Of a DNA stretch of 64,000 nt, positions 3,174 to 62,950 are shown piece by piece. A program made the position numbers and the translations under genes. Source of the stretch: a virus; the IMG/VR virus record IMGVR_UViG_3300034105_002232; one strand, 5' to 3'. Each line of letters opens with the position of its first letter. The stretch's first letter is position 1. A model generated the notes under the pieces. That model was not told where the DNA came from. It made no database searches and was given only the letters and a program-made list of their open reading frames with translations.

Positions 3174-3896
3174 TTATTCCTGTATACACACCAGCTCACA
3201 AACTTCTCTTATGATGTCTGGACAGATAATACGTACCAAATTAGCTACACCAACATCGTTGGTGTAAAAATAACAATTCCACATCCAATCTCCATCTTTG
3301 ACCAACTGCTCTGTGGTATTTTTAGGCAGCTTGACCAAATCTCCCAGTTGCTGCAGATAGTTATGGACCTGCGTCCTTGATTTTATGTCAAACCGTTTCT
3401 CTTTAAGGTATATTCGATATCTAAATTTTGGTTGTCTATTTACTATTATTGCGTTGCCTTGCAACCACTGACTACTGACATCAGATTCTGGGCCTGTAGC
3501 AGACAGTATCTGATGTCGAAACTGGACACCAATGGCCAATGCTATGGATTGTAGTATTGATTCTGATTCGGCATAGAAGCTGATTTTTGGCTCTTCAATC
3601 CTGACCCTTATGTCAGCATGTTTGTGTATCAGTCTTTTGAGATCAATCAGCAGACCCAGATCAGCTTCTTTGAGTTGCTCTTTTAGCTTACGGTCCCACC
3701 ACGATCCGCCTCCCAGTGAATACGATCGAGCACATGATTGCCGGTGCTGTAGATTGGCCTTGATATCATCGTACCGGATACTCTTGCAACCAGGAGCGTA
3801 AATTTCTAATCGATAAAGATACTGTTTAAAATACTGTTTGGCAGTATATTGTATCTTTGTATCTTTAGACAGGTTCTGCCAGAACAATGTATCCAT
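3174..3896 (-). CDS. hypothetical phage protein
   Basis: 240-aa ORF overlapping the end of clpA. Confidence 0.7.
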   Translation of the reverse strand: MDTLFWQNLSKDTKIQYTAKQYFKQYLYRLEIYAPGCKSIRYDDIKANLQHRQSCARSYSLGGGSWWDRKLKEQLKEADLGLLIDLKRLIHKHADIRVRIEEPKISFYAESESILQSIALAIGVQFRHQILSATGPESDVSSQWLQGNAIIVNRQPKFRYRIYLKEKRFDIKSRTQVHNYLQQLGDLVKLPKNTTEQLVKDGDWMWNCYFYTNDVGVANLVRIICPDIIREVCELVCIQE

Positions 3897-6144: not shown

Positions 6145-6152
6145 AATAATAT

Positions 6153-7022
6153 TTATTGGTTAGAGAGTAAATTTTTAATGGAAAGTTTCTGTGACTCATT
6201 TAAATCAGTAGGTACTATGATGTTAATAACAATTATTAAATTTCCTCTATGTGATTGATTCATTGCATACAAACCCTGTTGCTGTATTCTAAATCTTGAT
6301 CCTGGTTGAGTACCTGCAGGAACAGCCAGATCAAATTTACGACCGTCTAATCCTTGTAATTGAATAGTGGCACCCACAATGGCATCTAAGCAATTTAGAT
6401 CCACAGCTTTAATTAGATCTAAATTGTCAACATTAAAACCTGACGCACCTTCAACATGCAGTCTAACATACAAGTCGCCGCGTGTTAAACTAGGAAAAAA
6501 GTTATCACCTAGTCCAGGATACTTGATTGTGCTGTTGGGTGTAACACCTCGGGGTATCTGGACCTCAACAGTGACACGCTCACCGTTTGTGGTTTGAACA
6601 CTAATAGTCTTTGTTTGAATGTCCAAGGTACTAACCAGGCTGACCACTACATCAACCTGGATGTCTTTGTTTTTTCTTGGTTGCCTAAATTGCGAAAATG
6701 GATCGCTGTGTGCTGCAAATCCTGGGCCAAAACTGAACCCAAAATTTCTCAGCATGTCTTCCATGTGTGATGGTATGTCACCGTTGGTATCGTGCCCATT
6801 CACAGTAAATCTGAATCCACCGTGATGTCCTTGTCGTTCAGCATCATACTGTGCCCGAGTCTGATCTGTGCCTATTGTGTCGTAGGCATGTTGTATTTTC
6901 TGGAAGTGGGTAGTATCCCCACCTTTGTCAGGATGGTGTTGATTGGCCAACTTACGATATGCTTTTTTAATTTCATCCAGACTGGCAGACTCAGGAACTC
7001 CCAAGGTATCATAATGTGTCAT
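6153..7022 (-). CDS. DnaJ/CbpA-type co-chaperone (J domain plus C-terminal domain, no Zn finger)
   Basis: HYDTLGV...HHPDKGG J-domain; GDLYV C-domain. Confidence 0.9.
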   Translation of the reverse strand: MTHYDTLGVPESASLDEIKKAYRKLANQHHPDKGGDTTHFQKIQHAYDTIGTDQTRAQYDAERQGHHGGFRFTVNGHDTNGDIPSHMEDMLRNFGFSFGPGFAAHSDPFSQFRQPRKNKDIQVDVVVSLVSTLDIQTKTISVQTTNGERVTVEVQIPRGVTPNSTIKYPGLGDNFFPSLTRGDLYVRLHVEGASGFNVDNLDLIKAVDLNCLDAIVGATIQLQGLDGRKFDLAVPAGTQPGSRFRIQQQGLYAMNQSHRGNLIIVINIIVPTDLNESQKLSIKNLLSNQ

Positions 7023-37628: not shown

Positions 37629-38459
37629 TTACGTCCAAAGTGCATCTCTAATTTTGATCAGGCGAATCATCATGGCCTCATCCTCCGTGCTGTACTTATC
37701 TTCTAGCTCACGCATTTTCTCATGCATGGCGTCAGTGTTAACTGCATCATCACCGTAGTCATCTAGATCGTCTAATATACCTCGACCATTACCCCATCTT
37801 GTCTCGCAGTAGGCTGTCCATCCGCTGGCTTCCATGGGCTCTACACGCATGGGTCGATACACAGTCCACCAGTAATACAGGTCAAGTATTTCCTGTGCGC
37901 GAACAGCTTGATAAGTGGGTTTGCCATACTCGGGATTATCTTTGTCCGTCCACTCATCATCTTGTTTGAGACCACGTGCCCAGTCAAGACTGGCTATACC
38001 AGCAGCCGGGCTGCGCCAAGTGCGCCAACGAAACCATCCAGTAGTATACCAAGGTGCAGCAAATTGCTTGTAGGCATCCTGGTTCCAGGCCACATGACTC
38101 CAGGCCTGTTCTACTTCTACAAAATCAACAAGCTCATTGAACAGGCAATAAAGAAACCGGTTACCAACGTCCAGCCAACTACCGGGTTTGATATCTCGTG
38201 GATGGGCAGTAAGAGCATGAGTGCGAGTAACCCAACGGTTATTAACATAATACTTAATATCATACAATTTGTCCGGGATGTAAAAAATAAAGTTCTGCAG
38301 ATAAGTTAGCCCATCGTCGGCCAACCAGTAACGAACAGGATGTGCCTGTTTGGCTCGGGCTGTCCACTCACGCCAACCTTTACTGGTCTCTGCAGCGGGG
38401 CTTGCTGTGCCACGCAGCCAGTCGGCAAATTTACTGCAACTCCAATAGTGATTTCTCAT
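37629..38459 (-). CDS. Trp-rich hypothetical phage protein
   Basis: ORF; start refined to MRNHYW. Confidence 0.75.
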   Translation of the reverse strand: MRNHYWSCSKFADWLRGTASPAAETSKGWREWTARAKQAHPVRYWLADDGLTYLQNFIFYIPDKLYDIKYYVNNRWVTRTHALTAHPRDIKPGSWLDVGNRFLYCLFNELVDFVEVEQAWSHVAWNQDAYKQFAAPWYTTGWFRWRTWRSPAAGIASLDWARGLKQDDEWTDKDNPEYGKPTYQAVRAQEILDLYYWWTVYRPMRVEPMEASGWTAYCETRWGNGRGILDDLDDYGDDAVNTDAMHEKMRELEDKYSTEDEAMMIRLIKIRDALWT

Positions 38460-38743
38460 TGTTTGATCTCTTTCTGTACAGCCGGATCTGTTTGTTTTTC
38501 GTTCACACAATAGCCGCCTTTGAACTGATAAACTGTTGATTCCACAGACATTCTTTCATAAATTTCATTGTTGAAACACTTGTACGGGTCTTTGTATATG
38601 TTTATACCATAATAATACACGCCATATCCGATACCACCCAGTACACCCAGTACCAATACCAAAATCACAATGCTTTTGAGGTTGCCCATGAGACTGGGTA
38701 TAAACGCCAGTATCTGCGGCAAGAACTTTAATATGTCTTTCAT
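38456..38743 (-). CDS. hypothetical membrane protein
   Basis: TM helix; ATGA coupling at both ends. Confidence 0.6.
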   Translation of the reverse strand: MKDILKFLPQILAFIPSLMGNLKSIVILVLVLGVLGGIGYGVYYYGINIYKDPYKCFNNEIYERMSVESTVYQFKGGYCVNEKQTDPAVQKEIKQ

Positions 38744-38958
38744 TCAGCAATCCCAAAATGTTTTTTGATTTCGTACTCTAGTATACTTGAACTCTTGGCT
38801 TGTGTAAACCCTTGTGGGGTATTTTCTGCATCTTTGATTACCTGAATGCATTCTGCTATCAGCCTGTTTGCGAAACGTTGCCCGGTTGAATTCCACATAG
38901 GGCTAAGGTAAATGTTAAAATGCGACTGTTCGGCTAGTTCTTTAAAAGGATCATCCAT
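38740..38958 (-). CDS. paralog-array member (diverged)
   Basis: ELAEQ...RFA..LIAECI...IKKHFGIAE. Confidence 0.7.
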   Translation of the reverse strand: MDDPFKELAEQSHFNIYLSPMWNSTGQRFANRLIAECIQVIKDAENTPQGFTQAKSSSILEYEIKKHFGIAE

Positions 38959-38975
38959 TGTTCAATTCCAAAAGG

Positions 38976-39362
38976 TCAAGGTGTGTCTTGATTGGATAGG
39001 TCAGCCCCATCCTTGAATGCTTGTTTTATATTCTTTTTAAAATCTTCTTGCTTACTACTATTTTCAATCCTGGCACGGCGATCATATTGTGATTCTGCGC
39101 TGTTAATATCGGAAGGAGGATAATAACGACCTATACCTTCCACGGTAGGTTCGGCTATACCAAACTTCTTTCTTAGATTGGATTGATCTGTTTGGCTACC
39201 CAAAGAATTAATACATTCCCGCACAATCAACTCGGCGAACTTTTGTTCAAACATTTCATTATAATACTTTGTAGACCATTCAGTAGGGTCTTGAGTGAGT
39301 TCTACTTTCGCAAAAGCATACTGCCTAGCCTGTTCAGCAAGTAGTCGAATTCGTTCGTTCAT
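38976..39362 (-). CDS. paralog-array member with C-terminal extension
   Basis: MNERIRLLAEQA...KFAELIVRECI...KKFGIAE. Confidence 0.75.
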   Translation of the reverse strand: MNERIRLLAEQARQYAFAKVELTQDPTEWSTKYYNEMFEQKFAELIVRECINSLGSQTDQSNLRKKFGIAEPTVEGIGRYYPPSDINSAESQYDRRARIENSSKQEDFKKNIKQAFKDGADLSNQDTP

Positions 39363-39457
39363 AGTCCAAGCCTTCCTAAAATATTGCCCAACCACATCAT
39401 TCCAACTCCAAGCATAATGGTGCCAACGATTAATATTTTGATTTCAGTTCTATTCAT
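39359..39457 (-). CDS. 32-aa single-TM micro-protein, not in ORF track
   Basis: MNRTEIKILIVGTIMLGVGMMWLGNILGRLGL; ATGA-coupled at both ends. Confidence 0.55.
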   Translation of the reverse strand: MNRTEIKILIVGTIMLGVGMMWLGNILGRLGL

Positions 39458-39672
39458 TCTTCTACTCCGAAATGTAATATACCACCTGTGCCGTTGTCAA
39501 AGTGTTGTTCAATACGCTGGGCATAATGGTCGCCTTCTTTGGTGCCATCCATTACAGCATTAGTACATTCAAATACGATCAACTCGGCGAACTTTTCTAT
39601 AATATCTTCAAAATCATCGCCATACTTATAAAACCCTGCTTGTTTAGCAAATTCTTTAATTCGTTCGTTCAT
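39454..39672 (-). CDS. paralog-array member
   Basis: MNERIKEFAKQA...KFAELIVFEC...HFGVEE. Confidence 0.75.
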   Translation of the reverse strand: MNERIKEFAKQAGFYKYGDDFEDIIEKFAELIVFECTNAVMDGTKEGDHYAQRIEQHFDNGTGGILHFGVEE

Positions 39673-39878
39673 CGCCATTCTCCTGATCTACGGATTTCTT
39701 CGTCAGTAAACTGTCCGCCCATACGGTCTGGATTCTCAATCCAATCACGGGTAGATTTAGTTTGGTCAATGACCATTTTAAGTTGCTGGATTTCTTTGTC
39801 TTTCATCGTCAACATGACCTTGGCCATCTCTAATCGTTCTTCAACGGGAAATGCCTCATTGTCTAAAATCTTGTTCAT
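39669..39878 (-). CDS. hypothetical protein (W..NPDRMGGQF), inserted in the array
   Basis: Coupled ORF. Confidence 0.65.
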   Translation of the reverse strand: MNKILDNEAFPVEERLEMAKVMLTMKDKEIQQLKMVIDQTKSTRDWIENPDRMGGQFTDEEIRRSGEWR

Positions 39879-40114
39879 TCTTCAACTCCGAAATGTTCTG
39901 CGATACGGTTGACTGCTAAATCAACATAATAAACACAATCCTCTGGTGTACTTGTATAACTGTCGCCTGCAACTTCCATACACTCACGCACAATCAACTG
40001 GGCGAACTTTTCTATATGTTCCTCTACCGCCAACTCATGACCTTTATAGTCAACTGGCATATATGCTCCAAGACCAGAGCGATCATATAGTGCTAGTAAA
40101 AGTCTTTTGTTCAT
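39875..40114 (-). CDS. paralog-array member
   Basis: KFAQLIVRECM...HFGVEE. Confidence 0.75.
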   Translation of the reverse strand: MNKRLLLALYDRSGLGAYMPVDYKGHELAVEEHIEKFAQLIVRECMEVAGDSYTSTPEDCVYYVDLAVNRIAEHFGVEE

Positions 40115-40323
40115 TCTTCAACTCCGAAATGTTCTTTAATCGCTTTGTGGATCATGTGACTTCTATCTGCTTTTTCCAAGTTATGTTGTCTAGCAAATTC
40201 AGCACATTCTCTAACAATCAACTCGGCGAACTTTTTACATTCTGGCATATCCCAGTGCCCAATACCAAACATATCTTTTTCGTACCCAGCCTGTTCAGCA
40301 AGTAGTCGAATTCGTTCGTTCAT
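40111..40323 (-). CDS. paralog-array member
   Basis: MNERIRLLAEQA...KFAELIVRECA...HFGVEE. Confidence 0.75.
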   Translation of the reverse strand: MNERIRLLAEQAGYEKDMFGIGHWDMPECKKFAELIVRECAEFARQHNLEKADRSHMIHKAIKEHFGVEE

Positions 40324-40550
40324 TCTTCAACTCCAAAATGTCGTGCTATTGCTAATCCTACCCACGCTACACCTGTTTTTTCTTTATTATCATCAAGCAT
40401 AGCATCTACTTTATCAACCTGTGCCAAGCATTCCTTAACAATCAACTCGGCGAACTTTTGTGCATCAAAATGTAGATGCCCATCAATCAGTACTCCGTTG
40501 ACGTAATGGCTCCAGCATTGCTTTTCAAATTCTCGAATTTGTTCGTTCAT
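40320..40550 (-). CDS. paralog-array member
   Basis: MNEQIREF...KFAELIVKECL...HFGVEE. Confidence 0.75.
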   Translation of the reverse strand: MNEQIREFEKQCWSHYVNGVLIDGHLHFDAQKFAELIVKECLAQVDKVDAMLDDNKEKTGVAWVGLAIARHFGVEE

Positions 40551-40810
40551 TCTTTTTCTCCTACCTGGATATTGATCCCAAAATGCTTCTTGATTGCATC
40601 AGCATACTCATGCCCAGTCCTGGCAGTCTTGTTCTTCCTGATCACAATACAGGCTTCTAACAACAACAGGTGAGCCAGAACCTCTGCGTACAATGTTACA
40701 TCTGTATATATTCCAAAAGGACAATATATCTTACCATCTCTACCAGGGTACACCAATTTGGATTGCCGTAGTAGTTGCAATATGTGTTTGTTAATATCTG
40801 ACATGATCAA
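40547..40810 (-). CDS. paralog-array member (diverged)
   Basis: LAHLLLLEAC...AIKKHFGI. Confidence 0.6.
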   Translation of the reverse strand: MIMSDINKHILQLLRQSKLVYPGRDGKIYCPFGIYTDVTLYAEVLAHLLLLEACIVIRKNKTARTGHEYADAIKKHFGINIQVGEKE

Positions 40811-41646
40811 ACCTCTAGGTATTTAAGTTGAAAATGATCTGCCTGCTCTTCCTGTCCATCGTAACCCCTGGGATTACATACCACACGGCAAGTACCAATC
40901 ATGTAATCAAACTCGTGATGGGTATGACCGTGTGTCCATAGCTTGATATTGCGATTATCTAAGATAAACTCATCTAGATTGGTACTGTAGGCTCCGTTCA
41001 TGATGTGCTCATGTTTGTAGCGAGGATGCGTACTGGCCTTGCTGGGGGCGTGATGCCCCACCACCACGGTCTTCTGTGTGGGATACACTGCCAGTACCTT
41101 TCTGAGTACCTCCAAGAACTTCTTGTGATCCTGTACAGAGTCTTCAGGCAAGAATTTTCTAGTATAGAACCCTTCACGCTTGGTGGTATTCTTCACAGAT
41201 TGATAGTCATTCATCATGAAACGAATCTGTTGCATAGTAACAGGATCTTCACCGTTCATGTCTGTCCACAGTGTACCACCATAAAACAACACACCGTTGA
41301 TGATACGCCATTCTTTGTCTAAAAAATGTACATTGTGCAAGTCACCAAAGGTGCCACGAATCGTTTTGGCAGTAGCGGCATAGTCACCGTGGTAGTGTTC
41401 GTGATTGCCCATGATCAAGATCACCTGCGGGAATCGTTTACTGCAACGTTCAACAAAATCAAAATAACGGCGAGCACGTAGATTCATACGAGTGGGCATC
41501 AACACATCATTAAATGGTTCAAGATAGTTTAAGTCTTCAACCACAAAGATATCACCACCCAGGATCAAAACATCCGCATCTTGATCATTGACCAGATCAA
41601 GATCACCAAATTCCAAATGCAAATCACTGCACACTGCAATTTTCAT
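40807..41646 (-). CDS. calcineurin-like metallophosphoesterase
   Basis: SDLHLE, GDI, GNHE, HHAP, HGHTH. Confidence 0.9.
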   Translation of the reverse strand: MKIAVCSDLHLEFGDLDLVNDQDADVLILGGDIFVVEDLNYLEPFNDVLMPTRMNLRARRYFDFVERCSKRFPQVILIMGNHEHYHGDYAATAKTIRGTFGDLHNVHFLDKEWRIINGVLFYGGTLWTDMNGEDPVTMQQIRFMMNDYQSVKNTTKREGFYTRKFLPEDSVQDHKKFLEVLRKVLAVYPTQKTVVVGHHAPSKASTHPRYKHEHIMNGAYSTNLDEFILDNRNIKLWTHGHTHHEFDYMIGTCRVVCNPRGYDGQEEQADHFQLKYLEV

Positions 41647-42847: not shown

Positions 42848-42921
42848 TGGTTGCAGGACCAGGAATCGAACCTGGGACTGTAGCTTATGAGACTACCGTT
42901 TTACCGCTTCACTATCCTGCG
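42848..42921 (-). tRNA. tRNA-Met(CAU), initiator-like C1xA72 mismatch
   Basis: Cloverleaf, CTCATAA loop, TTCGATT, encoded CCA. Confidence 0.88.
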
Positions 42922-42967
42922 ATTGTTCTTACACCAATTTAAAACGCTTTAATACTTGTTCGATTCT

Positions 42968-43162
42968 TTAAATGGAATTACTGGCACGCTTGGCCTCTTT
43001 TGCATTGTAATGCTCCTCAATTGCTAGTATTGCCCAGGCCACCAATGCAGACATATTGGCATACACCGCAGCCGGGTTATCTGCGCCGTAGCAGACAATC
43101 AAGTTAAACACAGTGATGATGCAAATAGTGGCCGGGAACCATCGTTTGAAAAATATAATCAT
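42968..43162 (-). CDS. small two-TM membrane protein
   Basis: Start refined to MIIFFK (the longer ORF overlaps tRNA-Trp); AGGAG RBS. Confidence 0.6.
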   Translation of the reverse strand: MIIFFKRWFPATICIITVFNLIVCYGADNPAAVYANMSALVAWAILAIEEHYNAKEAKRASNSI

Positions 43163-43186
43163 TGCCAACTCCTTGATAGAAAAATA

Positions 43187-43260
43187 TGGCTCCGGTGGAG
43201 AGAATCGAACTCCCACCAGCGGTTTTGGAGACCGCTGCGCTGCCATTACGCCACACCGGA
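43187..43260 (-). tRNA. tRNA-Trp(CCA)
   Basis: Cloverleaf, CTCCAAA loop, G73, CCA end. Confidence 0.92.
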
Positions 43261-43274
43261 ATTTACTGTACTAA

Positions 43275-43514
43275 TTACTTTTGAAGAACTTTGTTCAGTC
43301 GTTGAACGCTCTCGTCAATCTGCTCTTCCAGTTTCAATTGATTCAGCATGGCTCGATACATGGTCCAGATCAAGCATACAATTACACCTGCTGCAAAGAC
43401 CCACATGAACATTTCAGGATTGAGTTGAAACAACATAACGGTCAATGCTGGGGAAACGATACACAATGCAAAAAATCCAGCTGTACGTGCTGCTGCACGA
43501 ATTCGTATATCCAT
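43275..43514 (-). CDS. two-TM membrane protein
   Basis: Hydrophobic ORF with AGGAG RBS. Confidence 0.65.
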   Translation of the reverse strand: MDIRIRAAARTAGFFALCIVSPALTVMLFQLNPEMFMWVFAAGVIVCLIWTMYRAMLNQLKLEEQIDESVQRLNKVLQK

Positions 43515-43536
43515 TCTGTTACTCCTTGATAAAAAA

Positions 43537-43713
43537 TTATTTTAGTTTACGCAAATACTCGATACCATACAGGCCTTTTTCAAATTCATTGAGTGCTGTT
43601 ACACAATCACGGTTGGCAGTACCCACAGTACTTTTGTGTCCGTTACGCAATTCGCGTACTCTGACACTGGCCATCAGTACTAAATTAAATCTATTTTCAA
43701 TTGGTTTATGCAT
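43537..43713 (-). CDS. rpoZ: RNA polymerase omega-subunit-like protein (58 aa), not in ORF track
   Basis: IENRFNLVLMASVRVRELRNG...VTALNEFEKGL matches the RpoZ pattern NRFxLVLxAxxRAR.L..G...ALxEIxxG. Confidence 0.72.
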   Translation of the reverse strand: MHKPIENRFNLVLMASVRVRELRNGHKSTVGTANRDCVTALNEFEKGLYGIEYLRKLK

Positions 43714-43763
43714 ATTTCTTTCATGTGTGTTTGCTTACTTAGCTAACGAACTTGTATTTAAGG

Positions 43764-44093
43764 TCAATGAAAACTTCCCTGAAAACAATGCCGCATTTCG
43801 TGTCCAATTTCATGCATGGTGCTGTGTTGTCCGGTTATCACAATGCATGAATTGCCTTCCCAAAACGAGCAAGCATCTACACCAAATCCAAACCCACCAA
43901 GCCCACGACGTCGACTTTCTGCTTCGCAAGCCTTTTGCACGTTATCGGCAACAACCCATTTTATTGTGCTGGTGTTGGTAAAATTCTTGTTGGTGTTAAA
44001 TCGTGCTTCGGGATCTTTCCACGATCCCGCAAAACTTGAAGTTGCAAAAATAGCAATTACAACAAAAGCAATAACGTTTTTCATAGTCAACAC
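43764..44093 (-). CDS. secreted protein with HExxH zinc-peptidase-like motif
   Basis: Signal peptide; HEIGHEMRHC. Confidence 0.6.
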   Translation of the reverse strand: MLTMKNVIAFVVIAIFATSSFAGSWKDPEARFNTNKNFTNTSTIKWVVADNVQKACEAESRRRGLGGFGFGVDACSFWEGNSCIVITGQHSTMHEIGHEMRHCFQGSFH

Positions 44094-44114
44094 CTTATTA
44101 ATTACTGTACAACT

Positions 44115-44143
44115 ATTATAGCAAAATGGGTATTTAAAGTCAA
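44115..44143 (-). promoter_or_regulatory. sigma70 promoter
   Basis: TTGACT-17-TATAAT with TG extension. Confidence 0.75.
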
Positions 44144-44427
44144 CCTGATTTTTCGTTGCTATCTTTGTAATACTTTTGCTGCTTGTGCTTGCGTTCCTGC
44201 ATGGTTTCTTGGCCCAGGGCTCGTCGCGGATTCATGCACATGTAACATCGGGGATCACCGCAGTTCAGTATTGCGGTTTTGTGGTTTCTATGTGGCTGTT
44301 CAATGTATTTCCACTTGGTGCCTTGATGCATGGCATAGGATTTGGCAATACCAACTTGGCGTTGTATCTTGGTTTCGTCGTTGAATCTACGACGACTGTT
44401 GCGAAACTTATCTTCCTCATGAGACAT
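44140..44427 (-). CDS. basic hypothetical protein with CGxxxCxMC motif
   Basis: Start refined to MSHEED (the longer ORF overlaps tRNA-Ser); AGGAG RBS. Confidence 0.7.
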   Translation of the reverse strand: MSHEEDKFRNSRRRFNDETKIQRQVGIAKSYAMHQGTKWKYIEQPHRNHKTAILNCGDPRCYMCMNPRRALGQETMQERKHKQQKYYKDSNEKSG

Positions 44428-44443
44428 AGCTTGCTCCTTAAAT

Positions 44444-44533
44444 TGGCGGAAGCGGTGAGATTCGAACTCACGGACCCATCTCTGAATCACTAGTTTTCAA
44501 GACTAGAGCAATCGTCCACTCTGCCACACTTCC
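44444..44533 (-). tRNA. tRNA-Ser(UGA)
   Basis: Long variable arm, CTTGAAA loop, G73, CCA. Confidence 0.92.
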
Positions 44534-44551
44534 TTGCATTACTATTTAACC

Positions 44552-44629
44552 TGGAGCAACGGGCGTGATTCGAACACGCGGTTTTAGGGATTTGCAGTCC
44601 CTTGCATTGGGCCGCTCTGCCACCGTTGC
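44552..44629 (-). tRNA. tRNA-Cys(GCA)
   Basis: CTGCAAA loop, U73, CCA. Confidence 0.92.
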
Positions 44630-44639
44630 ATAAACTTTT

Positions 44640-44714
44640 TGGTCCGGCTAGCAGGAATCGAACCCACATTAAAGGAGTAGAAATCCTCTGTATTATCCAT
44701 TATACTATAGCCAG
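44640..44714 (-). tRNA. tRNA-Arg(UCU)
   Basis: TTTCTAC loop, cloverleaf, CCA. Confidence 0.88.
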
Positions 44715-45052
44715 ACTAAACCTGCATGTACTTCGGCGTGACAATTAGCACACAATAAAGTACATTTATTAATTTCTTTTCTTAACTGCTCTATAGGAGC
44801 ACCTCTTTTACCACTAATACCAAATTCTTTTATTGATGGATCAATGTGGTGCCACTGTAATGCCGCAAAAGATTTATCATACTTGCATCTTTCGCACTTG
44901 CCGCCACGCTCAATAATTAACTGGTCTAATTTATCTCTAGCAACTTTATAGGTTCGTTTATTCCAGCATTTTTTGCATTGATAACGATACCCCTTTGCAT
45001 AGAAATGCGATGCTCCTTCGATGCCGCAATCTTTACAGACATACTCTTTCAT
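44705..45052 (-). CDS. HNH endonuclease (free-standing, homing-type) in the tRNA cluster
   Basis: CKDC..CKKC, GGKCERC..ALQWHH.DP...C.LLCANCHAEVH; start refined to MKEYVC. Confidence 0.85.
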   Translation of the reverse strand: MKEYVCKDCGIEGASHFYAKGYRYQCKKCWNKRTYKVARDKLDQLIIERGGKCERCKYDKSFAALQWHHIDPSIKEFGISGKRGAPIEQLRKEINKCTLLCANCHAEVHAGLVWL

Positions 45053-45062
45053 TTTGCTCTCC

Positions 45063-45087
45063 TGGTTAGAGTATTTATCTCTAACCA
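45063..45087 (-). promoter_or_regulatory. hairpin with late-promoter loop abutting the HNH RBS
   Basis: TGGTTAGAG-ATAAATA-CTCTAACCA followed directly by GGAG. Confidence 0.65.
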
Positions 45088-45094
45088 AAGATCA

Positions 45095-45171
45095 TGGTGG
45101 GCCGGGTGAGACTCGAACTCACTGTCACCCGATTATGAGTCGGACGCTTATACCAGTTAAGCTTCCGGCCC
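45095..45171 (-). tRNA. tRNA-CAU, probably Ile2 (lysidine type)
   Basis: GGGCC 5' end, CCGAC-TCATAA-TCGG arm, CCA. Confidence 0.85.
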
Positions 45172-45224
45172 ACGAGTGCCCGCTTGATTACTAGAACTTA
45201 ATCTAGACCGCGCTACACAAAACT

Positions 45225-45307
45225 TGGTACCCGGAGCCGGACTTGAACCGGCACGCCATGAGCGGGAGATTTTAAGTCTCCTGTGTCTACCATTCCACCA
45301 CCCGGGC
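45225..45307 (-). tRNA. tRNA-Leu(UAA)
   Basis: CTTAAAA loop, variable arm, CCA. Confidence 0.92.
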
Positions 45308-45322
45308 AAAACTTTTAAAACT

Positions 45323-45396
45323 TGGTGCCCCTTGACAGAATCGAACTGCCAATTGATGATTACAAATCAACTGTTATACCATTTAACTAAAAGGGC
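45323..45396 (-). tRNA. tRNA-Thr(UGU)
   Basis: TTTGTAA loop, CCA. Confidence 0.9.
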
Positions 45397-45402
45397 AAAT
45401 CT

Positions 45403-45490
45403 TGGCGGAGAGTATAGGAATCGAACCTATCCACCGGTTACCCAGTGACAGTTTAGCAAACTGTTGCCTTAACCGCTCGGCCAACTCTCC
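45403..45490 (-). tRNA. tRNA-Ser(GCU)
   Basis: TTGCTAA loop, long variable arm, G73, CCA. Confidence 0.92.
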
Positions 45491-45502
45491 TAACTTGTTA
45501 CT

Positions 45503-45531
45503 ATTATATAGTGTAGTACCTTTAATGTCAA
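45503..45531 (-). promoter_or_regulatory. consensus sigma70 promoter of the tRNA operon
   Basis: TTGACA-17-TATAAT. Confidence 0.8.
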
Positions 45532-46241
45532 GCAGTTTGTATATATGGATAGATTCTACGTAAGTCTTTACCAGCTAGACTCACTAGCTCATCTTTCTGA
45601 GTGCTTCTGTTAACGGCTAAACACGGGTGTATAACGGTTCCAGATTTTAGGGTCAATCCTTCTCCAAACACTTGACAGCTAAGACCCACATAAACATTAT
45701 CTTCTAATGTGTTATAAACGTGAATACCTGCTTGCCGTTGTATTATACAATTTTTTCCAATAATGTTATGATGTCCAATTGCTGCATATGAAAAAATACC
45801 AGTAAAATCTCCAATGGTGTTATATCCAGAAATATAAACAAAAGAATCAATCAAAACATTTTTTCCAATAGAAACTGTTTTATGTACACAGGCAGTAGGA
45901 TCAACCACTGATATACATTCTAAATTATACATTTCTATCAGGTCTATGAACTTTTTTTTCTTTTGTCTATCCCTGGCTTGAATTGGATTTTTTTCACTGG
46001 TCCAGTTTACTACTAAAAAAAAGTTAAAGTTTGATTTGTAAAATTCAAGTAAATTACTATCTTTAAAATTCTCTTCTGTATCAATGACACTAATACCTTC
46101 AATGTTGTTGGTATTACCGTAATAATCATTGTCTATCAGACCGTGTACCTTGATATCTAATTTTTCAAATAGATCTTTATAATACCACAAAGCTGCATTA
46201 GATCCTAAAAATATTACAGGTTTACTATTATCGTTAATCAT
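45528..46241 (-). CDS. NeuD/PglD-like hexapeptide-repeat O-acetyltransferase
   Basis: N-terminal Rossmann-like domain, VDPTA.V...IG, IGH...IG left-handed beta-helix. Confidence 0.8.
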   Translation of the reverse strand: MINDNSKPVIFLGSNAALWYYKDLFEKLDIKVHGLIDNDYYGNTNNIEGISVIDTEENFKDSNLLEFYKSNFNFFLVVNWTSEKNPIQARDRQKKKKFIDLIEMYNLECISVVDPTACVHKTVSIGKNVLIDSFVYISGYNTIGDFTGIFSYAAIGHHNIIGKNCIIQRQAGIHVYNTLEDNVYVGLSCQVFGEGLTLKSGTVIHPCLAVNRSTQKDELVSLAGKDLRRIYPYIQTA

Positions 46242-46816
46242 TGATTAATAAAATAAGGTTTAAAAAAATTAACAGTTTCTTGCCAAGACGAAAAGGTAGA
46301 TGATTGAAATCTAAGACTAAACGTCCATCTATGTTGATTGCTATTATTTAAAATTCTATGAGGAATTGCTGCATTAATTAATGTTGGTTTTAAAATTTGA
46401 CAACGTTCAATTTCAGTTACTTCGTTGTCATCCCATTGCTGATATTCCATGTTGCTAAAATTCTTTTTAGATTGCGTAATCATGTCATGATTATTGGGCT
46501 GGTACCAAATCATATATGAATCTAGCCCACTTAATACCCAATTAACACCAATTTGGTTAGTACCAGGTGGCCCATCACGATGTATAATGCTGTTCATGTT
46601 GGGTGGACCACAAAAAAGATGACAATTGTTAATTTTTAATTTATGTTCGGCCGCCCAGTGTTGTATATCTAGATGCACTACTTCCAAATTTTTATCTTCA
46701 ACATAATGCCAGAGATACCATTTTTGTTGGTCAAAATTTTCTTGCTCGAGCGCAGGAAAAACAAAATTGTCTTTTAACGGATTAGTAAAAAAGTTCAATT
46801 CATGATAATTTTTCAT
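46238..46816 (-). CDS. cupin / 2OG-Fe(II)-oxygenase-like protein
   Basis: IHRD...PHRI...R facial-triad-like motif. Confidence 0.5.
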   Translation of the reverse strand: MKNYHELNFFTNPLKDNFVFPALEQENFDQQKWYLWHYVEDKNLEVVHLDIQHWAAEHKLKINNCHLFCGPPNMNSIIHRDGPPGTNQIGVNWVLSGLDSYMIWYQPNNHDMITQSKKNFSNMEYQQWDDNEVTEIERCQILKPTLINAAIPHRILNNSNQHRWTFSLRFQSSTFSSWQETVNFFKPYFINQ

Positions 46817-47873
46817 CTTGTACTGTATATTTTTCATACTTTGCTTTTTCGTTAAAAATATGTTCTCTATCTTTGTCAACTAGCCTAGCAAAATCATCTA
46901 GACTATATAATAACCCATTGTGTCTAATCTGAGAAGCTCTAAATGTCTGTGGAGTATTAAAAATTTTATTTAGATAACAAATGGTTCTTGCCATGGTACG
47001 TTTATCGCCATCTTTGACATTGGTAGGTCTTTTATGCAACGTTATTTCTTGATCCATGAATACAATTTGGCCATCTTGCCAATTTTGAGTATGCACATAT
47101 TCTTCTTTGTACACAACTTTTTTTAATTCGTCCATTATACGATTACTTTCTGCAATAGACATACCAACGAATCCGTCAAAACTATGACTAGGAATCTTCA
47201 TACCCGATAACCCAGTTGCTGTTTCTCTATACAGCCGAGTCTCCATGCCATCAATAGGAACCATGTTATAATGTATAATCAATGTTTGTACAGGATTCAA
47301 TCCAGGGGCCATCACATGATCAACCCACTTGTGTTTTACAAACAATTCTTTAACTGTGCTGCGCATGTCTGAGCTCAATGATTCATATGCATCGTGTGTG
47401 CATAAAAACTGCGTTTGACTGTTTACAGTATCGCTTATGCTTTTGAGACCAATGATCCGTTGCCCATCATCAAATGCACACTGATCGCTGTGCCAATCCA
47501 ATTCTCCATTTTGGAAGATTCCGGATGGTCTACCCTTGGGGCCTTTTTTATAACTCACCATGCTTACTGCCTTATGCATGTCGTTTCCTGCTGAATTACT
47601 GACGTAACCCAAGTTTACAAGAATTTCTCTCCAATGGCGGCCTTCAATTTTCTTTTCAGTCACATACTCGTGAATTAACGCTCTACTTGGATCACCCCAT
47701 TCTAACATACTTTTATACAACATTTCTGTGGTAATATCTTGTTCAACAACTACTATACACTGTGATGCACACAATTTACCCAATTCTGTAATCTCGTCCG
47801 GCGACGCCCAATCAATATCGTATGCCTCGAGGCCAACACTGGCCCCATAATTTTTCAATGGTCTGGTTTTCAT
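46800..47873 (-). CDS. TauD/TfdA-family 2OG-dependent dioxygenase
   Basis: WHSD, TQF...AY..L, WQDGQIVFMD...LHKR. Confidence 0.85.
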   Translation of the reverse strand: MKTRPLKNYGASVGLEAYDIDWASPDEITELGKLCASQCIVVVEQDITTEMLYKSMLEWGDPSRALIHEYVTEKKIEGRHWREILVNLGYVSNSAGNDMHKAVSMVSYKKGPKGRPSGIFQNGELDWHSDQCAFDDGQRIIGLKSISDTVNSQTQFLCTHDAYESLSSDMRSTVKELFVKHKWVDHVMAPGLNPVQTLIIHYNMVPIDGMETRLYRETATGLSGMKIPSHSFDGFVGMSIAESNRIMDELKKVVYKEEYVHTQNWQDGQIVFMDQEITLHKRPTNVKDGDKRTMARTICYLNKIFNTPQTFRASQIRHNGLLYSLDDFARLVDKDREHIFNEKAKYEKYTVQDEKLS

Positions 47874-47897
47874 TTTTATCCTTTAGTAAATATATTG

Positions 47898-48005
47898 CTA
47901 GTAGAAGTTCTACTCACGGACGGCGTTCCGCATAATCTAATGCGGTAAAGAGGTAGCTCCCCAAGCGTCTAATAGACCGACGTCAACACTATGTTGGCGC
48001 TGCAC
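47898..48005 (-). ncRNA. candidate structured 5' leader / ncRNA
   Basis: Four hairpins in a GC-rich 110-nt gap directly after TATAAATA. Confidence 0.4.
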
Positions 48006-48040
48006 TACTATTTATATTAGCGTAACAGTCCTGTCAACCT

Positions 48041-48604
48041 TTACATTGTAGGACCGTTACCGTTTTTAAATCCTACTTCACCACCTTCTGCAACGATACG
48101 CTTGATCACATCTTCAAACAGCACGGGTGCAAAGTCAGTTTGTTCTACGCAGACGCAATGGTATCTAGTATCAACCGCACCATCTTTCATTACTCTGTTA
48201 CTGTGCAGATGTCCATGTATATTAGTACCAAAACGGCCTAGGCTGTCCGAGTGAATAGGAATATGACTCAGTATCATTCCGTTCATCACGTGGTAGGCAC
48301 GTAATTCTCTAAAGTATTCGCGGTACTCGTCGTCACGGAAGATATCGTGATTACCACGTATCAGCACCTTGTCCCCGTTTAGGCGAGCCAATGTACTCAA
48401 TGCTCTACGATTGATCACAACATCACCCAGGTGATAAACTTTATCGTTGGGCCCAACACGCTCGTTCCAGGCCTTGACCATAAACTCATCCATTTCTTCT
48501 GGATCGTCCCAAGGACGCAGTTTGGTCACACCATCGTTGCGTAGGAATCTACATACGCCAGCATGACCAAAATGCGTGTCACTTACTAAAAATACTGCTG
48601 GCAT
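48041..48604 (-). CDS. calcineurin-like phosphoesterase
   Basis: SDTHFGH, HLGD, GNHD, HGHLH. Confidence 0.88.
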   Translation of the reverse strand: MPAVFLVSDTHFGHAGVCRFLRNDGVTKLRPWDDPEEMDEFMVKAWNERVGPNDKVYHLGDVVINRRALSTLARLNGDKVLIRGNHDIFRDDEYREYFRELRAYHVMNGMILSHIPIHSDSLGRFGTNIHGHLHSNRVMKDGAVDTRYHCVCVEQTDFAPVLFEDVIKRIVAEGGEVGFKNGNGPTM

Positions 48605-48620
48605 ATTCAACTCCTTTCTA

Positions 48621-48857
48621 TTATCCAAATATTGCTTTTATTACACGATAGTTTTTATCAGTGCCACGAACTTCTACCCGAGTCTTGTCAATTTCAGCTA
48701 GTTCTTGTGCTACCCCTTTAGCCCAGGGCAAAGGTAATTCTACTCGTTCATTGTCATGATCGGGATAGCGTAGCGGCATCCACTGTGCATACCCACCAAA
48801 TCCCTCAGCATTAGTTTCTGTTTGGGGATTGGCAAGCCAAATTTCATATAATGCCAT
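48621..48857 (-). CDS. hypothetical protein
   Basis: ORF with RBS. Confidence 0.6.
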   Translation of the reverse strand: MALYEIWLANPQTETNAEGFGGYAQWMPLRYPDHDNERVELPLPWAKGVAQELAEIDKTRVEVRGTDKNYRVIKAIFG

Positions 48858-48870
48858 AATACTTTCCTTT

Positions 48871-49176
48871 CTATGCTGTTATCCAACGTTCTTGTTCTTT
48901 TAAATATATTGATTCATTACCATCGTATTCATCTACACGAAACACAGTTCCCTCTGGTAACCATAGTATGGACAAATCTTTGAGCCCGCCTACGTAGGCA
49001 TCGGGATACTTCAGTGTTACGTAACTTAGAATTTTATCCGTTTCTTCGGCTTCTAGCCACGCCACAATGCTTGGATCAAAAAGCAATTCTTCAATCTGGT
49101 GACAACTATACCATCCGACACCATACTCGGGGCTATAAAGCACTGCCACTTGTCCGTCACGAATTACACGTTCCAT
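48871..49176 (-). CDS. hypothetical phage protein (VAVLYSP.YG.GW...EYDG.E)
   Basis: ORF with AGGAGG RBS. Confidence 0.75.
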   Translation of the reverse strand: MERVIRDGQVAVLYSPEYGVGWYSCHQIEELLFDPSIVAWLEAEETDKILSYVTLKYPDAYVGGLKDLSILWLPEGTVFRVDEYDGNESIYLKEQERWITA

Positions 49177-49199
49177 TATGCCCTCCTTTCTAAATATTT

Positions 49200-49291
49200 T
49201 GGTACCAGCGGAGGGAATCGAACCCTCTCAAGAACGCTAATCTGGCGCTAAAAGGTTTATAAAACCTCTCTGACTACCAAGTCTCGCTGGC
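49200..49291 (-). tRNA. non-canonical tRNA with UAU anticodon, minimal D-arm and long variable arm
   Basis: GCCAGCG/CGCTGGT-A-CCA; GACT-TGGT-AGTC; TTTATAA loop; GAGGG-TTCGATT-CCCTC. Confidence 0.75.
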
Positions 49292-49300
49292 AATTGTTTT

Positions 49301-49374
49301 TGGAGCGGGGTAGGAGAATCGAACTCCTCGCTTTAGCTTGGAAGGCTAAGGTATTACCACTATACGAACCCCGC
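49301..49374 (-). tRNA. tRNA-Gly(UCC)
   Basis: CTTCCAA loop, U73, CCA. Confidence 0.92.
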
Positions 49375-49383
49375 TTTAAAACT

Positions 49384-49458
49384 TGGTACACCGTAGGAGA
49401 ATCGAACTCCTCTTACCTGCGTGAAAGGGATGTGTCCTAACCAATAGACGAACGGTGC
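49384..49458 (-). tRNA. tRNA-Glu(UUC), anticodon stem with two mismatches
   Basis: CATCC-CTTTCAC-GCAGG. Confidence 0.75.
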
Positions 49459-49462
49459 ATAA

Positions 49463-49546
49463 ACCATATTGAAGCACACTTTAGATAAGCCCTATGCGTC
49501 CGACACGAATGCCACGCATCCAAGGCAAAATGTGTTTCAATATGGT
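49463..49546 (-). ncRNA. long hairpin RNA in the Leu-Glu tRNA spacer
   Basis: ACCATATTGAAACACA/TGTGCTTCAATATGGT outer stem, ATGCGT/ACGCAT, GGCA-TTCG-TGTC tip. Confidence 0.55.
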
Positions 49547-49626
49547 GCCTGGGGCGAGACTCGAACTCGCACGTCTCTCGACACTGGCTTCTAAGACCAG
49601 CATGGCTACCATTACATCACCCAGGC
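49543..49626 (-). tRNA. tRNA-Leu(UAG)
   Basis: CTTAGAA loop, variable arm, CCA. Confidence 0.92.
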
Positions 49627-62339: not shown

Positions 62340-62368
62340 ATTATAGCAAATGATGAATTTATTGTCAA
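62340..62368 (-). promoter_or_regulatory. consensus sigma70 promoter
   Basis: TTGACA-17-TATAAT. Confidence 0.8.
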
Positions 62369-62369
62369 T

Positions 62370-62396
62370 AAAAATAGCACCCTAGGGTGCTATTTT
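62370..62396 (-). terminator. terminator of the tmRNA gene
   Basis: AAAATAGCACCCTAGGGTGCTATTTT palindrome. Confidence 0.8.
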
Positions 62397-62399
62397 AGC

Positions 62400-62776
62400 T
62401 ATTTGTTAACAAGGCGCCGCCCCCGGGTCTAGAGTTTCTTAGGCTGCTAGTAAAACTGCTGAGTCATTTGCAGCAACACGGCCAAAAAAGGCAGCTTTGC
62501 TTACAGTAACTTTTACAGTACCATTTGTATTTGCGTTTGCATTTACGAGTTTTGCTTGATTTACAGTCATCGCCTACTGTGCTGTCCATATCCTTACTTG
62601 ATGCCCAATCGAAACCTGGTCGCCCCCATCAGAAGTACTCTTGATCTCCAGTTTACCGGTGGGGATCAATCCACTTTCAACCTTCTCCGATCCGGCGTCC
62701 CGTTTAGAATACTTTTGGTGGAGGCGAGGGGAATCGAACCCCTGTCTTGAACACCTTTCATTCTACTTCATACAAC
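62400..62776 (-). ncRNA. ssrA: circularly permuted (two-piece) tmRNA
   Basis: Acceptor piece ...GACAGGGGTTCGATTCCCCTCGCCTCCACCA (CCA at 62716-62718) precedes the coding piece GGGGGCGACCAGGTTTCGA (G1 at 62627); G3-U70 pair; tag ORF 62439-62540 ends in LAA. Confidence 0.9.
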
Positions 62777-62782
62777 AATTCT

Positions 62783-62950
62783 TTACTTTACTTCTCTAAG
62801 TTCACATCTGGCTTTGATGGCGTTTTCTCTGTGATGCATGATTGCTCGCACAATTTCCTCACATTCAGTCCGGCGTGTATAACTGCGCCAATCTCGCTCA
62901 ACTCCATCGGCAACGACCAAAACCACCAAGACCCAAACCCAAATATCCAT
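62783..62950 (-). CDS. small protein with hydrophobic N-terminus and two Cys (55 aa), not in ORF track
   Basis: MDIWVWVLVVLVVADG...CEE...ARCELR; manual translation. Confidence 0.5.
   Translation of the reverse strand: MDIWVWVLVVLVVADGVERDWRSYTRRTECEEIVRAIMHHRENAIKARCELREVK

Follow-up and report, generated by a model that had tools for sequence, protein, structure and literature searches.

The array of small genes at positions 38740-40810 (minus strand) of the viral DNA analysed here, a stretch of 64,000 nucleotides from IMG/VR record IMGVR_UViG_3300034105_002232 that we call the window, is most likely a hyperplastic region in the genome of a large, uncultured tailed phage, stocked with members of a three-helix protein family that recombine at constant DNA blocks. 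It holds seven small genes of this family (g1 to g7) together with two small genes unrelated to it. A first-pass annotation, made from the letters alone, had described a tandem array of about seven mini-genes and read it as a recombination-driven cassette array shuffling hypervariable loops on a small helical scaffold. The observation itself was confirmed, with all seven family genes recovered on the minus strand, and the interpretation was partly supported.

All genes described below lie on the minus strand. The upstream anchor, which we used to fetch the syntenic loci of relatives, is a calcineurin-like phosphoesterase gene (40807-41646), and the hyperplastic interval is bounded downstream by a conserved gene of 293 aa with no family match (37629-38510). 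Next to the phosphoesterase gene lies g1 (40547-40804, 85 aa counted from its ATG), a divergent member without the constant DNA blocks whose counterpart is stable in the related loci L001 and L004 (77% amino acid identity). It is followed by g2 (40320-40550, 76 aa), g3 (40111-40323, 70 aa), g4 (39875-40114, 79 aa), g5 (39454-39672, 72 aa) and g6 (38976-39362, 128 aa including a 56-aa tail), all family members with three blocks, and by the divergent last member g7 (38740-38958, 72 aa), whose counterparts are the final members in L030 and L083. Three protein blocks had been proposed as common to the ORFs; this holds for g2-g6 and fails for g1 and g7, which were recognized as divergent members by alignment (HMM E-values 1e-16 to 2e-21), have none of the DNA blocks and give no sign of shuffling. 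A 95-aa membrane (TM) protein gene (38456-38743) is ATGA-coupled to g7; it is conserved and in most relatives is located upstream of the phosphoesterase gene.

The two unrelated genes, which we refer to as cargo, each start in an ATGA overlap after a family gene, in agreement with the earlier reading that they begin at the same junction. One (39669-39878, 69 aa) starts in this way after g4 and ends in an ATGA overlap with g5. The other, a hydrophobic mini-gene of 32 aa (39359-39457) between g5 and g6, recurs in L001 and L030 with 100% amino acid and 96.7% nucleotide identity, there too after a family gene. From g1 to the TM gene, ATGA overlaps occur at 7 of 9 gene junctions. The junctions of other types are a 2-nt gap between the phosphoesterase gene and g1 and a 17-nt gap between g6 and g7, the latter with a decayed junction-like copy (38951-38976, minus strand; 73% identity; repeat family D4). 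An ATGA overlap terminates 284 of 418 family genes, and the next ORF is a non-family one in 257 of 352 cases.

The genes are laid out as block A, N-module, block B, C-module and C-terminal block. Block A consists of the start codon and the first ~12 codons (helix 1), block B of the core codons of helix 2, and the C-terminal block also carries the GGAG ribosome-binding site and the ATGA stop/start overlap for the next gene. Block B, a mid-gene 19-mer, is present on the minus strand at 40441-40459 (in g2), 40217-40235, 39993-40011, 39578-39596 and 39226-39244, i.e. in five copies for 0 expected (100 shuffles). The 22-nt junction block, comprising C-terminal codons, the GGAG Shine-Dalgarno sequence, the ATGA overlap and the start of the following gene, occurs on the same strand at 40319-40340, 40110-40131, 39874-39895 and 39453-39474 (four copies, 0 expected by chance), and g3 and g6 are identical over their first 36 nt (40288-40323 and 39327-39362). 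The repeated DNA listed in the first-pass annotation (the 36-nt duplicate, the five mid-gene 19-mers and the four junctions) was thus recovered in full.

These blocks are conserved as DNA, at silent sites as well, and with minor codons. In block B, five codons with a background frequency of 0.21-0.30 are chosen in 27 to 32 of 32 genes, and the Val codon adjoining them varies freely. Same-codon fractions in the block codon analysis were 0.65 for Ala, 0.84 for Leu and 0.87 for Ile (expected 0.33, 0.22 and 0.43, respectively). A short conserved DNA site of this kind recurs in at least 119 viral contig stretches, 171 of its 174 matches being in frame within family genes. We rejected intragenomic gene conversion as the source of block identity: identity within and between loci is equal (0.63 vs 0.62 for block A; 0.82 vs 0.82 for block B).

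An RNA-level or regulatory role, such as translational control, mRNA structure, or targeting by a nuclease or sRNA, could also account for the conserved silent sites, recombination then being a by-product of identity. Such a role is clear for the C-terminal block, in which a GGA codon present in 39 of 40 genes gives the GGAG located 7 nt ahead of the next ATG, and in 3 of 4 window genes blocks A and B are paired with each other in the minimum-energy fold. Against it, the z-scores of the folds are weak (-0.6 to -1.9), and 23% of all synonymous recodings of the two blocks pair equally well or better; with the natural codons only at the 23rd percentile of these recodings, we rejected pairing of the two blocks as the cause of codon conservation. 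An Rfam search of the array gave no match, and neither promoter-like sites (19 vs 15.8 expected) nor terminator-like sites (4 vs 4.2 expected) were enriched in it. We therefore consider this explanation unlikely.

The DNA between the blocks is a mosaic. We compared the array with the arrays of other phages by blastn, requiring at least 85% identity over at least 60 nt, and seven patches passed. A patch of 77 nt (40349-40273) spans the g2/g3 junction and matches L198 at 88%, L260 being similar. The others are 40338-40200 (L205, 86%; L229, 87%), 40141-39990 (L001, 90%; L004, 89%; L252, 92%), 39716-39560 (L001, 94%), 39596-39454 (L030, 89%), 39475-39353 (L001 and L030, 96.7%; L238, 88%) and 39362-39208 (L030 and L001, 88%); these six patches of 120-157 nt each extend between neighbouring constant blocks. 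The closest DNA relatives of the array patches (86-97%) sit at different places in other phages, and the flanking phosphoesterase gene of the patch-sharing phages is only ~68% identical at the nucleotide level. A metagenome scan for close relatives of the window gave 78% amino acid identity at best.

Single genes are composite in the same way. The N-half of g4 is 90% identical in nucleotides to L001:8715-8866, and its C-half is unrelated; the N-half of g5 is ~94-100% identical to L001:1-156 and its C-half 89% identical to L030:7883-8025. From its N-module into block B, g6 shares ~60 nt at 100% identity with L030:7750-8025 (88% over the 155-nt patch), and the end of its tail is found again in L001/L004:4199-4468 and in P0106. 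L030:7750-8025 is itself a chimera: its N-module is that of g6 and its C-module that of g5, with block B as the crossover site. Between the near-identical relatives L001 and L004, a syntenic block of 97.8% identity (3725-6953) is bounded by block B inside family genes, another of 99.1% starts at the C-terminal junction, and in L004:6826-7068 sequences of L001:6826 and L001:1390 are joined in a chimera. At the blocks, 100% nucleotide identity drops sharply to no similarity. Breakpoints thus map to the constant blocks in the window and in its relatives, and these alignments place the crossovers between phages, and between positions in one genome, in the blocks.

To follow the modules beyond these loci, 408 proteins were resolved into 227 N-modules and 259 C-modules, found in 356 combinations that include one complete four-gamete square. 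Two or more C-partners were found for 41 N-modules, and two or more N-partners for 56 C-modules. The N-module of g3 is paired with at least 75 different C-modules in metagenomes, and its C-module with other N-modules in P0043, P0048 and P0106. Crossovers in block B yield in-frame chimeras of N- and C-modules; those in the junction or in block A insert, delete or replace whole genes, cargo included, and shift copy number. Each product keeps its reading frame and its translational coupling. Relatives differ widely in the number and order of the genes: the same anchors enclose no member in L081, L082, L003 and L084, three in L083 and seven in L030 and the window, while L001 holds 16 members within 12.8 kb. 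Across relatives, the anchor-to-anchor interval contains 1 to 14 small ORFs, of which 0 to 7 are family members.

The alternative of ordinary tandem paralogs, in which local duplication was followed by fast point divergence in segments free of constraint and the blocks were kept by protein need only, is consistent with the arrangement of the genes, all in tandem on a single strand, and with blocks that coincide with the best-conserved residues and helices. It is already contradicted by the abrupt loss of nucleotide identity at the blocks, by the occurrence of one module beside different partners, and by minor codons fixed at silent sites next to a free Val codon. In addition, the array members are only 21-28% identical to one another, as distant mutually as from members in other phages, where their nearest relatives are found; modules are unequal in length (variable segments of 13-28 aa within the window), and the variable segments of g2-g6 align no better than chance (z of -1.3 to 2.7 against shuffles). 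Local duplication with point divergence is hardly credible on these grounds, and the array is not a set of local duplicates, which makes the earlier term "paralogous" misleading. Neither of the outcomes named beforehand as contrary to a shuffled array was found: order and content were not invariant, and variable segments did not align simply as point-diverged copies.

The first-pass annotation also suggested a diversifying library. Programmed diversification, with a dedicated recombinase, homing-type endonuclease or retroelement acting on block B or the junction during infection, would fit a short DNA site that is conserved far past coding need in so many viral contig stretches. Several features make it highly improbable. 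No recombinase or reverse transcriptase was noticed beside the arrays in the inspected loci. The repeats are all direct, so that site-specific exchange would delete rather than invert, and the position of the crossovers is variable, both inside the blocks and around them. The targets of diversity-generating retroelements (DGRs) are variable regions of fixed length that depart from a template repeat at adenines and lie near a reverse transcriptase; here, the variable segments are unequal in length and vary at every base, and no template repeat is present among the direct repeats. In a shufflon, inverted repeats flank the segments and a site-specific recombinase is present, whereas the repeat families here are all direct and the genes are all on one strand. 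In Neisseria, the pilE expression locus draws on silent pilS donors in the same genome. The array resembles pilin antigenic variation in that conserved DNA blocks flank in-frame variable mini-cassettes and would guide homologous exchange. It differs in that no copy lacks a start or a ribosome-binding site, which leaves no silent donor cassettes; all array copies are predicted to be expressed, and exchange would take place among phage genomes on an evolutionary scale. Nothing in these results shows a programmed or within-infection mechanism of diversification. Exchange between co-infecting phages at the blocks would instead proceed by ordinary homologous recombination, with no dedicated enzyme.

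We then considered the proteins. They are predicted to be small acidic three-helix bundles (AF2 pLDDT of 85 for g3 and 81 for g5; family median pI of 4.9), in line with the small helical scaffold proposed initially, and the blocks match the best-conserved residues and fall on helix 1, helix 2 and the last part of helix 3. A Cys in helix 2 and a His in the C-terminal block are invariant. Between the blocks lie not hypervariable loops but discrete, reusable modules, helix segments included, on which purifying selection acts: for shared modules dN/dS is 0.13-0.14 at a dS of ~0.75. This ratio is biased towards low values, since the grouping of modules required at least 60% amino acid identity. In the gp38 tail-fibre adhesins of T2/T6-type phages, likewise, conserved motifs rich in glycine separate hypervariable segments (Trojet et al., 2011, PMC3157838). 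The likeness lies in a single protein that alternates conserved structural segments with independently interchangeable variable ones. However, gp38 is an adhesin of the virion, encoded once and with glycine-rich spacers, whereas the present family is multi-copy, helical and non-structural-looking; its blocks are helical, lack a glycine-rich motif and have no tail-fibre link or Pfam/PHROG match.

The family is unnamed and without annotation, although it amounts to 7,477 clusters at 50% identity. Searches of Pfam, PHROGs, NCBIfam and the ESM Atlas returned no informative match; the best match of a PDB profile search had E = 0.2, that of Foldseek against the PDB E = 2.4, and that of VIA-align Z = 5.1, a generic helical match. 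Matches in BFVD were only to uncharacterised proteins from uncultured phages, and longer homologues offered only tandem fusion, zinc-ribbon-like or other tails, with no informative domain. In 50,697 deposited phage genomes, neither DNA nor tblastn searches with g3 and the array gave a match, and the motif strings appeared in no paper that we found. At the search sensitivity used, the family seems absent from cultured phages, and it probably occurs widely in the genomes of uncultured lake phages.

Its small size, acidity and hyperplastic-region location are circumstantial hints that make an anti-defence or host-binding role a candidate. The modules could form two exchangeable surfaces on a constant core, binding variable host or defence targets. 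Another possible function is that of internal proteins packaged in the capsid and injected, with block A as a targeting and cleavage peptide like that of T4 IPI-III and diversity countering restriction. The family is small, acidic and multi-copy, and its consensus N-terminus has consecutive (I/L)-x-E motifs (residues 5-7 and 8-10), (I/L)-x-E being the form of the T4 prohead-protease site, with which the ~10 N-terminal residues common to the T4 proteins end. The T4 internal proteins are described as highly diverse defence proteins with only a conserved targeting sequence in common (Rao and Black, 2010, PMC3012670). IPI-III, thought to counter host defences and encoded at a polymorphic locus, are similarly small and highly diverse with a constant N-terminal stretch. 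Here, in contrast, the N-terminal helix is integral to the modelled bundle (pLDDT 85-91 for residues 1-10) and so looks structural, and the family has three constant blocks, two more than the T4 proteins. We regard this function as quite improbable; it concerns function only and would be compatible with recombination at the blocks.

The closest precedent among the systems compared is the modular shuffling mediated by PeSLs in T4-type phages (Arbiol et al., 2010, PMC2839356; Comeau et al., 2014, PMC4122927). A PeSL is a conserved intergenic unit of ~100 bp that combines a stem-loop terminator with a sigma-70 early promoter. In both cases, short conserved motifs among small non-essential genes of a hyperplastic region are preferred crossover sites, crossovers insert, delete and replace genes and carry expression signals along, and direct repeats would permit excision as circles. 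As in PeSL-bearing phages, differences between related phages start and stop at the motif, and the hyperplastic region is rich in small orphan genes. Unlike PeSLs, the motifs of the array lie within coding sequence or the ATGA overlap and bring a ribosome-binding site rather than a promoter and terminator; one of them is mid-gene, so that exchange also makes chimeric proteins.

We propose that silent-site conservation lasts because cassettes with intact blocks keep spreading; direct selection on block DNA for another reason may be the cause instead. More tentatively, the blocks could themselves be the selected units of a "plug-and-play" system of cassettes that serves the accessory genes of phages and needs no enzyme. 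In such a system, any downstream gene would be captured by the junction block with a ready ribosome-binding site and coupling, the two binding surfaces would be recombined in frame through block B, and silent-site identity would be kept across phages that have otherwise diverged, for cassette exchange in a gene pool common to freshwater phages.

The shuffling of modules at conserved linkers is already known from phage intergenic regulatory cassettes and from one adhesin. Unlike in these earlier cases, the linkers here are found within a tiny gene as well as at its ends, so that one architecture explains gene gain and loss, cargo capture and in-frame domain swaps, and would have every recombinant expressed immediately. 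The conserved silent sites would be a clean case of selection or recombination dynamics preserving DNA identity for exchangeability. The module repertoire may serve as a natural library of three-helix proteins, screenable for host or defence targets and, if the blocks are indeed selected as cassette linkers, would constitute a population-wide combinatorial library of small binders for the arms race with the host.

The first-pass annotation had described about seven small genes built from three protein blocks and DNA repeats with unrelated variable segments between them. An iteratively built HMM picked exactly seven members (g1 to g7) in the 64 kb, all three protein blocks and the DNA repeats were found in the array (38740-40810), and the stretches between blocks aligned no better than chance. 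We refer to the start codon and first ~12 codons as block A, to a 19-nt mid-gene block as block B (5 copies in the window vs 0 in shuffles), and to a 22-nt junction with the RBS and an ATGA overlap as the C-terminal block (4 copies vs 0); the variable segments between them are the N-module and the C-module. The genes g3 and g6 are identical over their first 36 nt. On the plus strand the array also holds antisense ORFs of 53-136 aa (39183-39344, 39502-39912 and 39946-40305); in each of them the reverse complement of block B encodes one and the same short peptide, probably a by-product of block conservation.

The source of the window is a large uncultured tailed phage, with two clusters totalling 13 tRNA genes, a tmRNA-like gene whose tag is 33 residues long (42848-49626 and 62348-62809, minus strand), and genes for ClpA/B-like, DnaJ, radical-SAM, DNA ligase, clamp-loader-like, PstS and porin proteins. 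The array lies downstream of a phosphoesterase gene (40807-41646, minus strand) that has hundreds of relatives among IMG/VR viral contigs; the other anchor encodes a 293-aa protein (37629-38510, minus strand), 55-75% identical in amino acids across many related phages and without a match in Pfam or NCBIfam. The minus-strand chain after the phosphoesterase gene comprises g1 to g7, unrelated 69-aa (39669-39878) and 32-aa cargo genes and, at its end, the gene of a 95-aa membrane protein (38456-38743, minus strand). Between g1 and the membrane-protein gene, 7 of the 9 gene junctions are ATGA stop/start overlaps; the phosphoesterase gene and g1 are 2 nt apart, and g6 is separated from g7 by 17 nt in which a decayed junction copy lies. 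Most relatives have the membrane-protein gene immediately upstream of the phosphoesterase gene (e.g. L001:5750-6004, a related-phage locus), and it is downstream in the window, L081 and L082; this changed position marks local rearrangement around the array.

The first-pass annotation had suggested mapping recombination breakpoints to the constant blocks, and this is where they fall, both in the switch points between two mutually near-identical relatives, the loci L001 and L004, and in the patch ends of the window. A syntenic block shared by L001 and L004 (97.8% identical) both starts and stops within family genes, precisely at block B, and a second (99.1% identical) starts at the C-terminal junction. 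In base-level alignments, unrelated sequence switches to 100% identity at block B, and one gene of L004 joins parts of two L001 genes into a chimera. Using a cut-off of at least 85% identity, seven patches of the window array match other phages' arrays at differing positions (86% to 97% identity), the six long ones (120-157 nt) each spanning one constant block to the next; the phosphoesterase gene of the phages sharing them is only ~68% identical to the window's. L030:7750-8025 combines the g6 N-module with the g5 C-module, and in g6 itself a g3-type block A and an N-module common to L030 and L001 are followed by a C-module of its own and by a tail (38976-39143, minus strand). The last ~14 residues of this tail also end otherwise different members in L001/L004:4199-4468 and in the family protein P0106, which suggests that a third module open to exchange follows the C-terminal block.

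Parsing 408 proteins yielded 227 N-module clusters, 259 C-module clusters and 356 combinations, including a complete four-gamete square. At least two C-partners were found for 41 N-modules (75 for one of them, a count inflated by the many proteins found via similarity to g3) and at least two N-partners for 56 C-modules; this reciprocal sharing is free of the g3 ascertainment effect. Family members were nearby in only 32 of 160 phosphoesterase-anchored loci. Between the same two anchors there are none in L081, L082, L003 and L084, three in L083, and seven in L030 and the window, so that array order and content are far from invariant; in L001, 12.8 kb are home to 16 members, and L004 has 8. The hypervariable loops of the first-pass annotation did not hold up: the modules are conserved functional units and not hypermutating, with a dN/dS of 0.13-0.14 at dS ~0.75 for shared modules, a ratio biased downward by the 60% clustering threshold.

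The blocks are also conserved at silent sites. Codons were compared in genes ascertained through the anchor, a set without bias for codon choice. Minor codons (background frequency 0.21-0.30) are used in block B by 27-32 of 32 genes, and the Val codon next to them varies freely. At Ala, Leu and Ile, the fraction of genes with the same codon is two- to fourfold the expected one. Block A and the C-terminal block show similar codon conservation; in the latter, 39 of 40 genes have a GGA codon that forms a GGAG site 7 nt ahead of the following start. At least 119 viral contig stretches (4-355 kb) carry the 17-nt core of block B, which, among the matches listed, lies in frame inside family genes in 171 of 174 cases. 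Since block likeness is no higher within a genome than between genomes, local gene conversion does not explain the conservation, and local duplication is rejected as the origin of the array, which was therefore built from a shared pool. Pairing of block A with block B in RNA was negative as a cause. We infer that silent-site conservation is maintained by exchangeability.

Of 418 family genes, 284 finish in an ATGA overlap with the ORF behind them, and in 257 of 352 cases the ORF that follows does not belong to the family; the 3' end thus appears to serve cargo genes as a general adaptor for expression. The 32-aa hydrophobic cargo gene (39359-39457, minus strand; L001:481-579; L030:7483-7581) is 100% identical in amino acids and 96.7% in nucleotides in these three phages, directly behind a family gene in each, and is likely to be a genuine micro-gene that spread recently. 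The core gene of its three carriers is only ~68% identical in nucleotides.

The family matched no curated family or solved structure and was not found in deposited phage genomes at the sensitivity used. It is huge in metagenomes: a word search listed more than 2,286 matches, and searching 1.84 billion representatives with a profile gave 7,477 clusters at 50% identity. Members are small and acidic (medians of 79 aa and pI 4.9, net charge -5). AlphaFold models of g3 (pLDDT 85, pTM 0.74) and g5 (pLDDT 81) share a three-helix layout in which block A forms helix 1, helix 2 extends from the N-module end across block B into the C-module, and helix 3 finishes at the C-terminal block. Conservation in family alignments is highest at one Cys ending block B and at the C-terminal block's His-Phe-Gly, and many C-modules have one or two extra cysteines, so these residues might form a metal or redox site. 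Among longer relatives (P0121, P0122, P0125, P0123 and P0128) are two family units fused head to tail in a single protein, and other members of this set with cysteine-rich (zinc-ribbon-like) tails or a common 60-aa tail.

Homologous exchange at the three short constant blocks is the best-supported mechanism, and the L001/L004 switch points, the window mosaic and the module network support the recombination-driven cassette array originally suggested. PeSL-mediated modular shuffling (PMC2839356) is the closest concept, but its linkers are promoter/terminator units, whereas those of the array are coding or translational and one is intragenic; at the protein level, the HVS/GRM design of gp38 (PMC3157838) is the nearest analogue. 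Block A contains (I/L)xE motifs which, together with an analogy to the T4 IPs (PMC3012670), hint faintly that the family may comprise internal proteins. Exchange at the blocks, presumably performed by general recombination in co-infection, creates in-frame chimeras, adds and removes cassettes and captures unrelated genes, with all products expressed immediately. As a tentative working guess, the family might provide the phage with small proteins that bind variable host or defence proteins.
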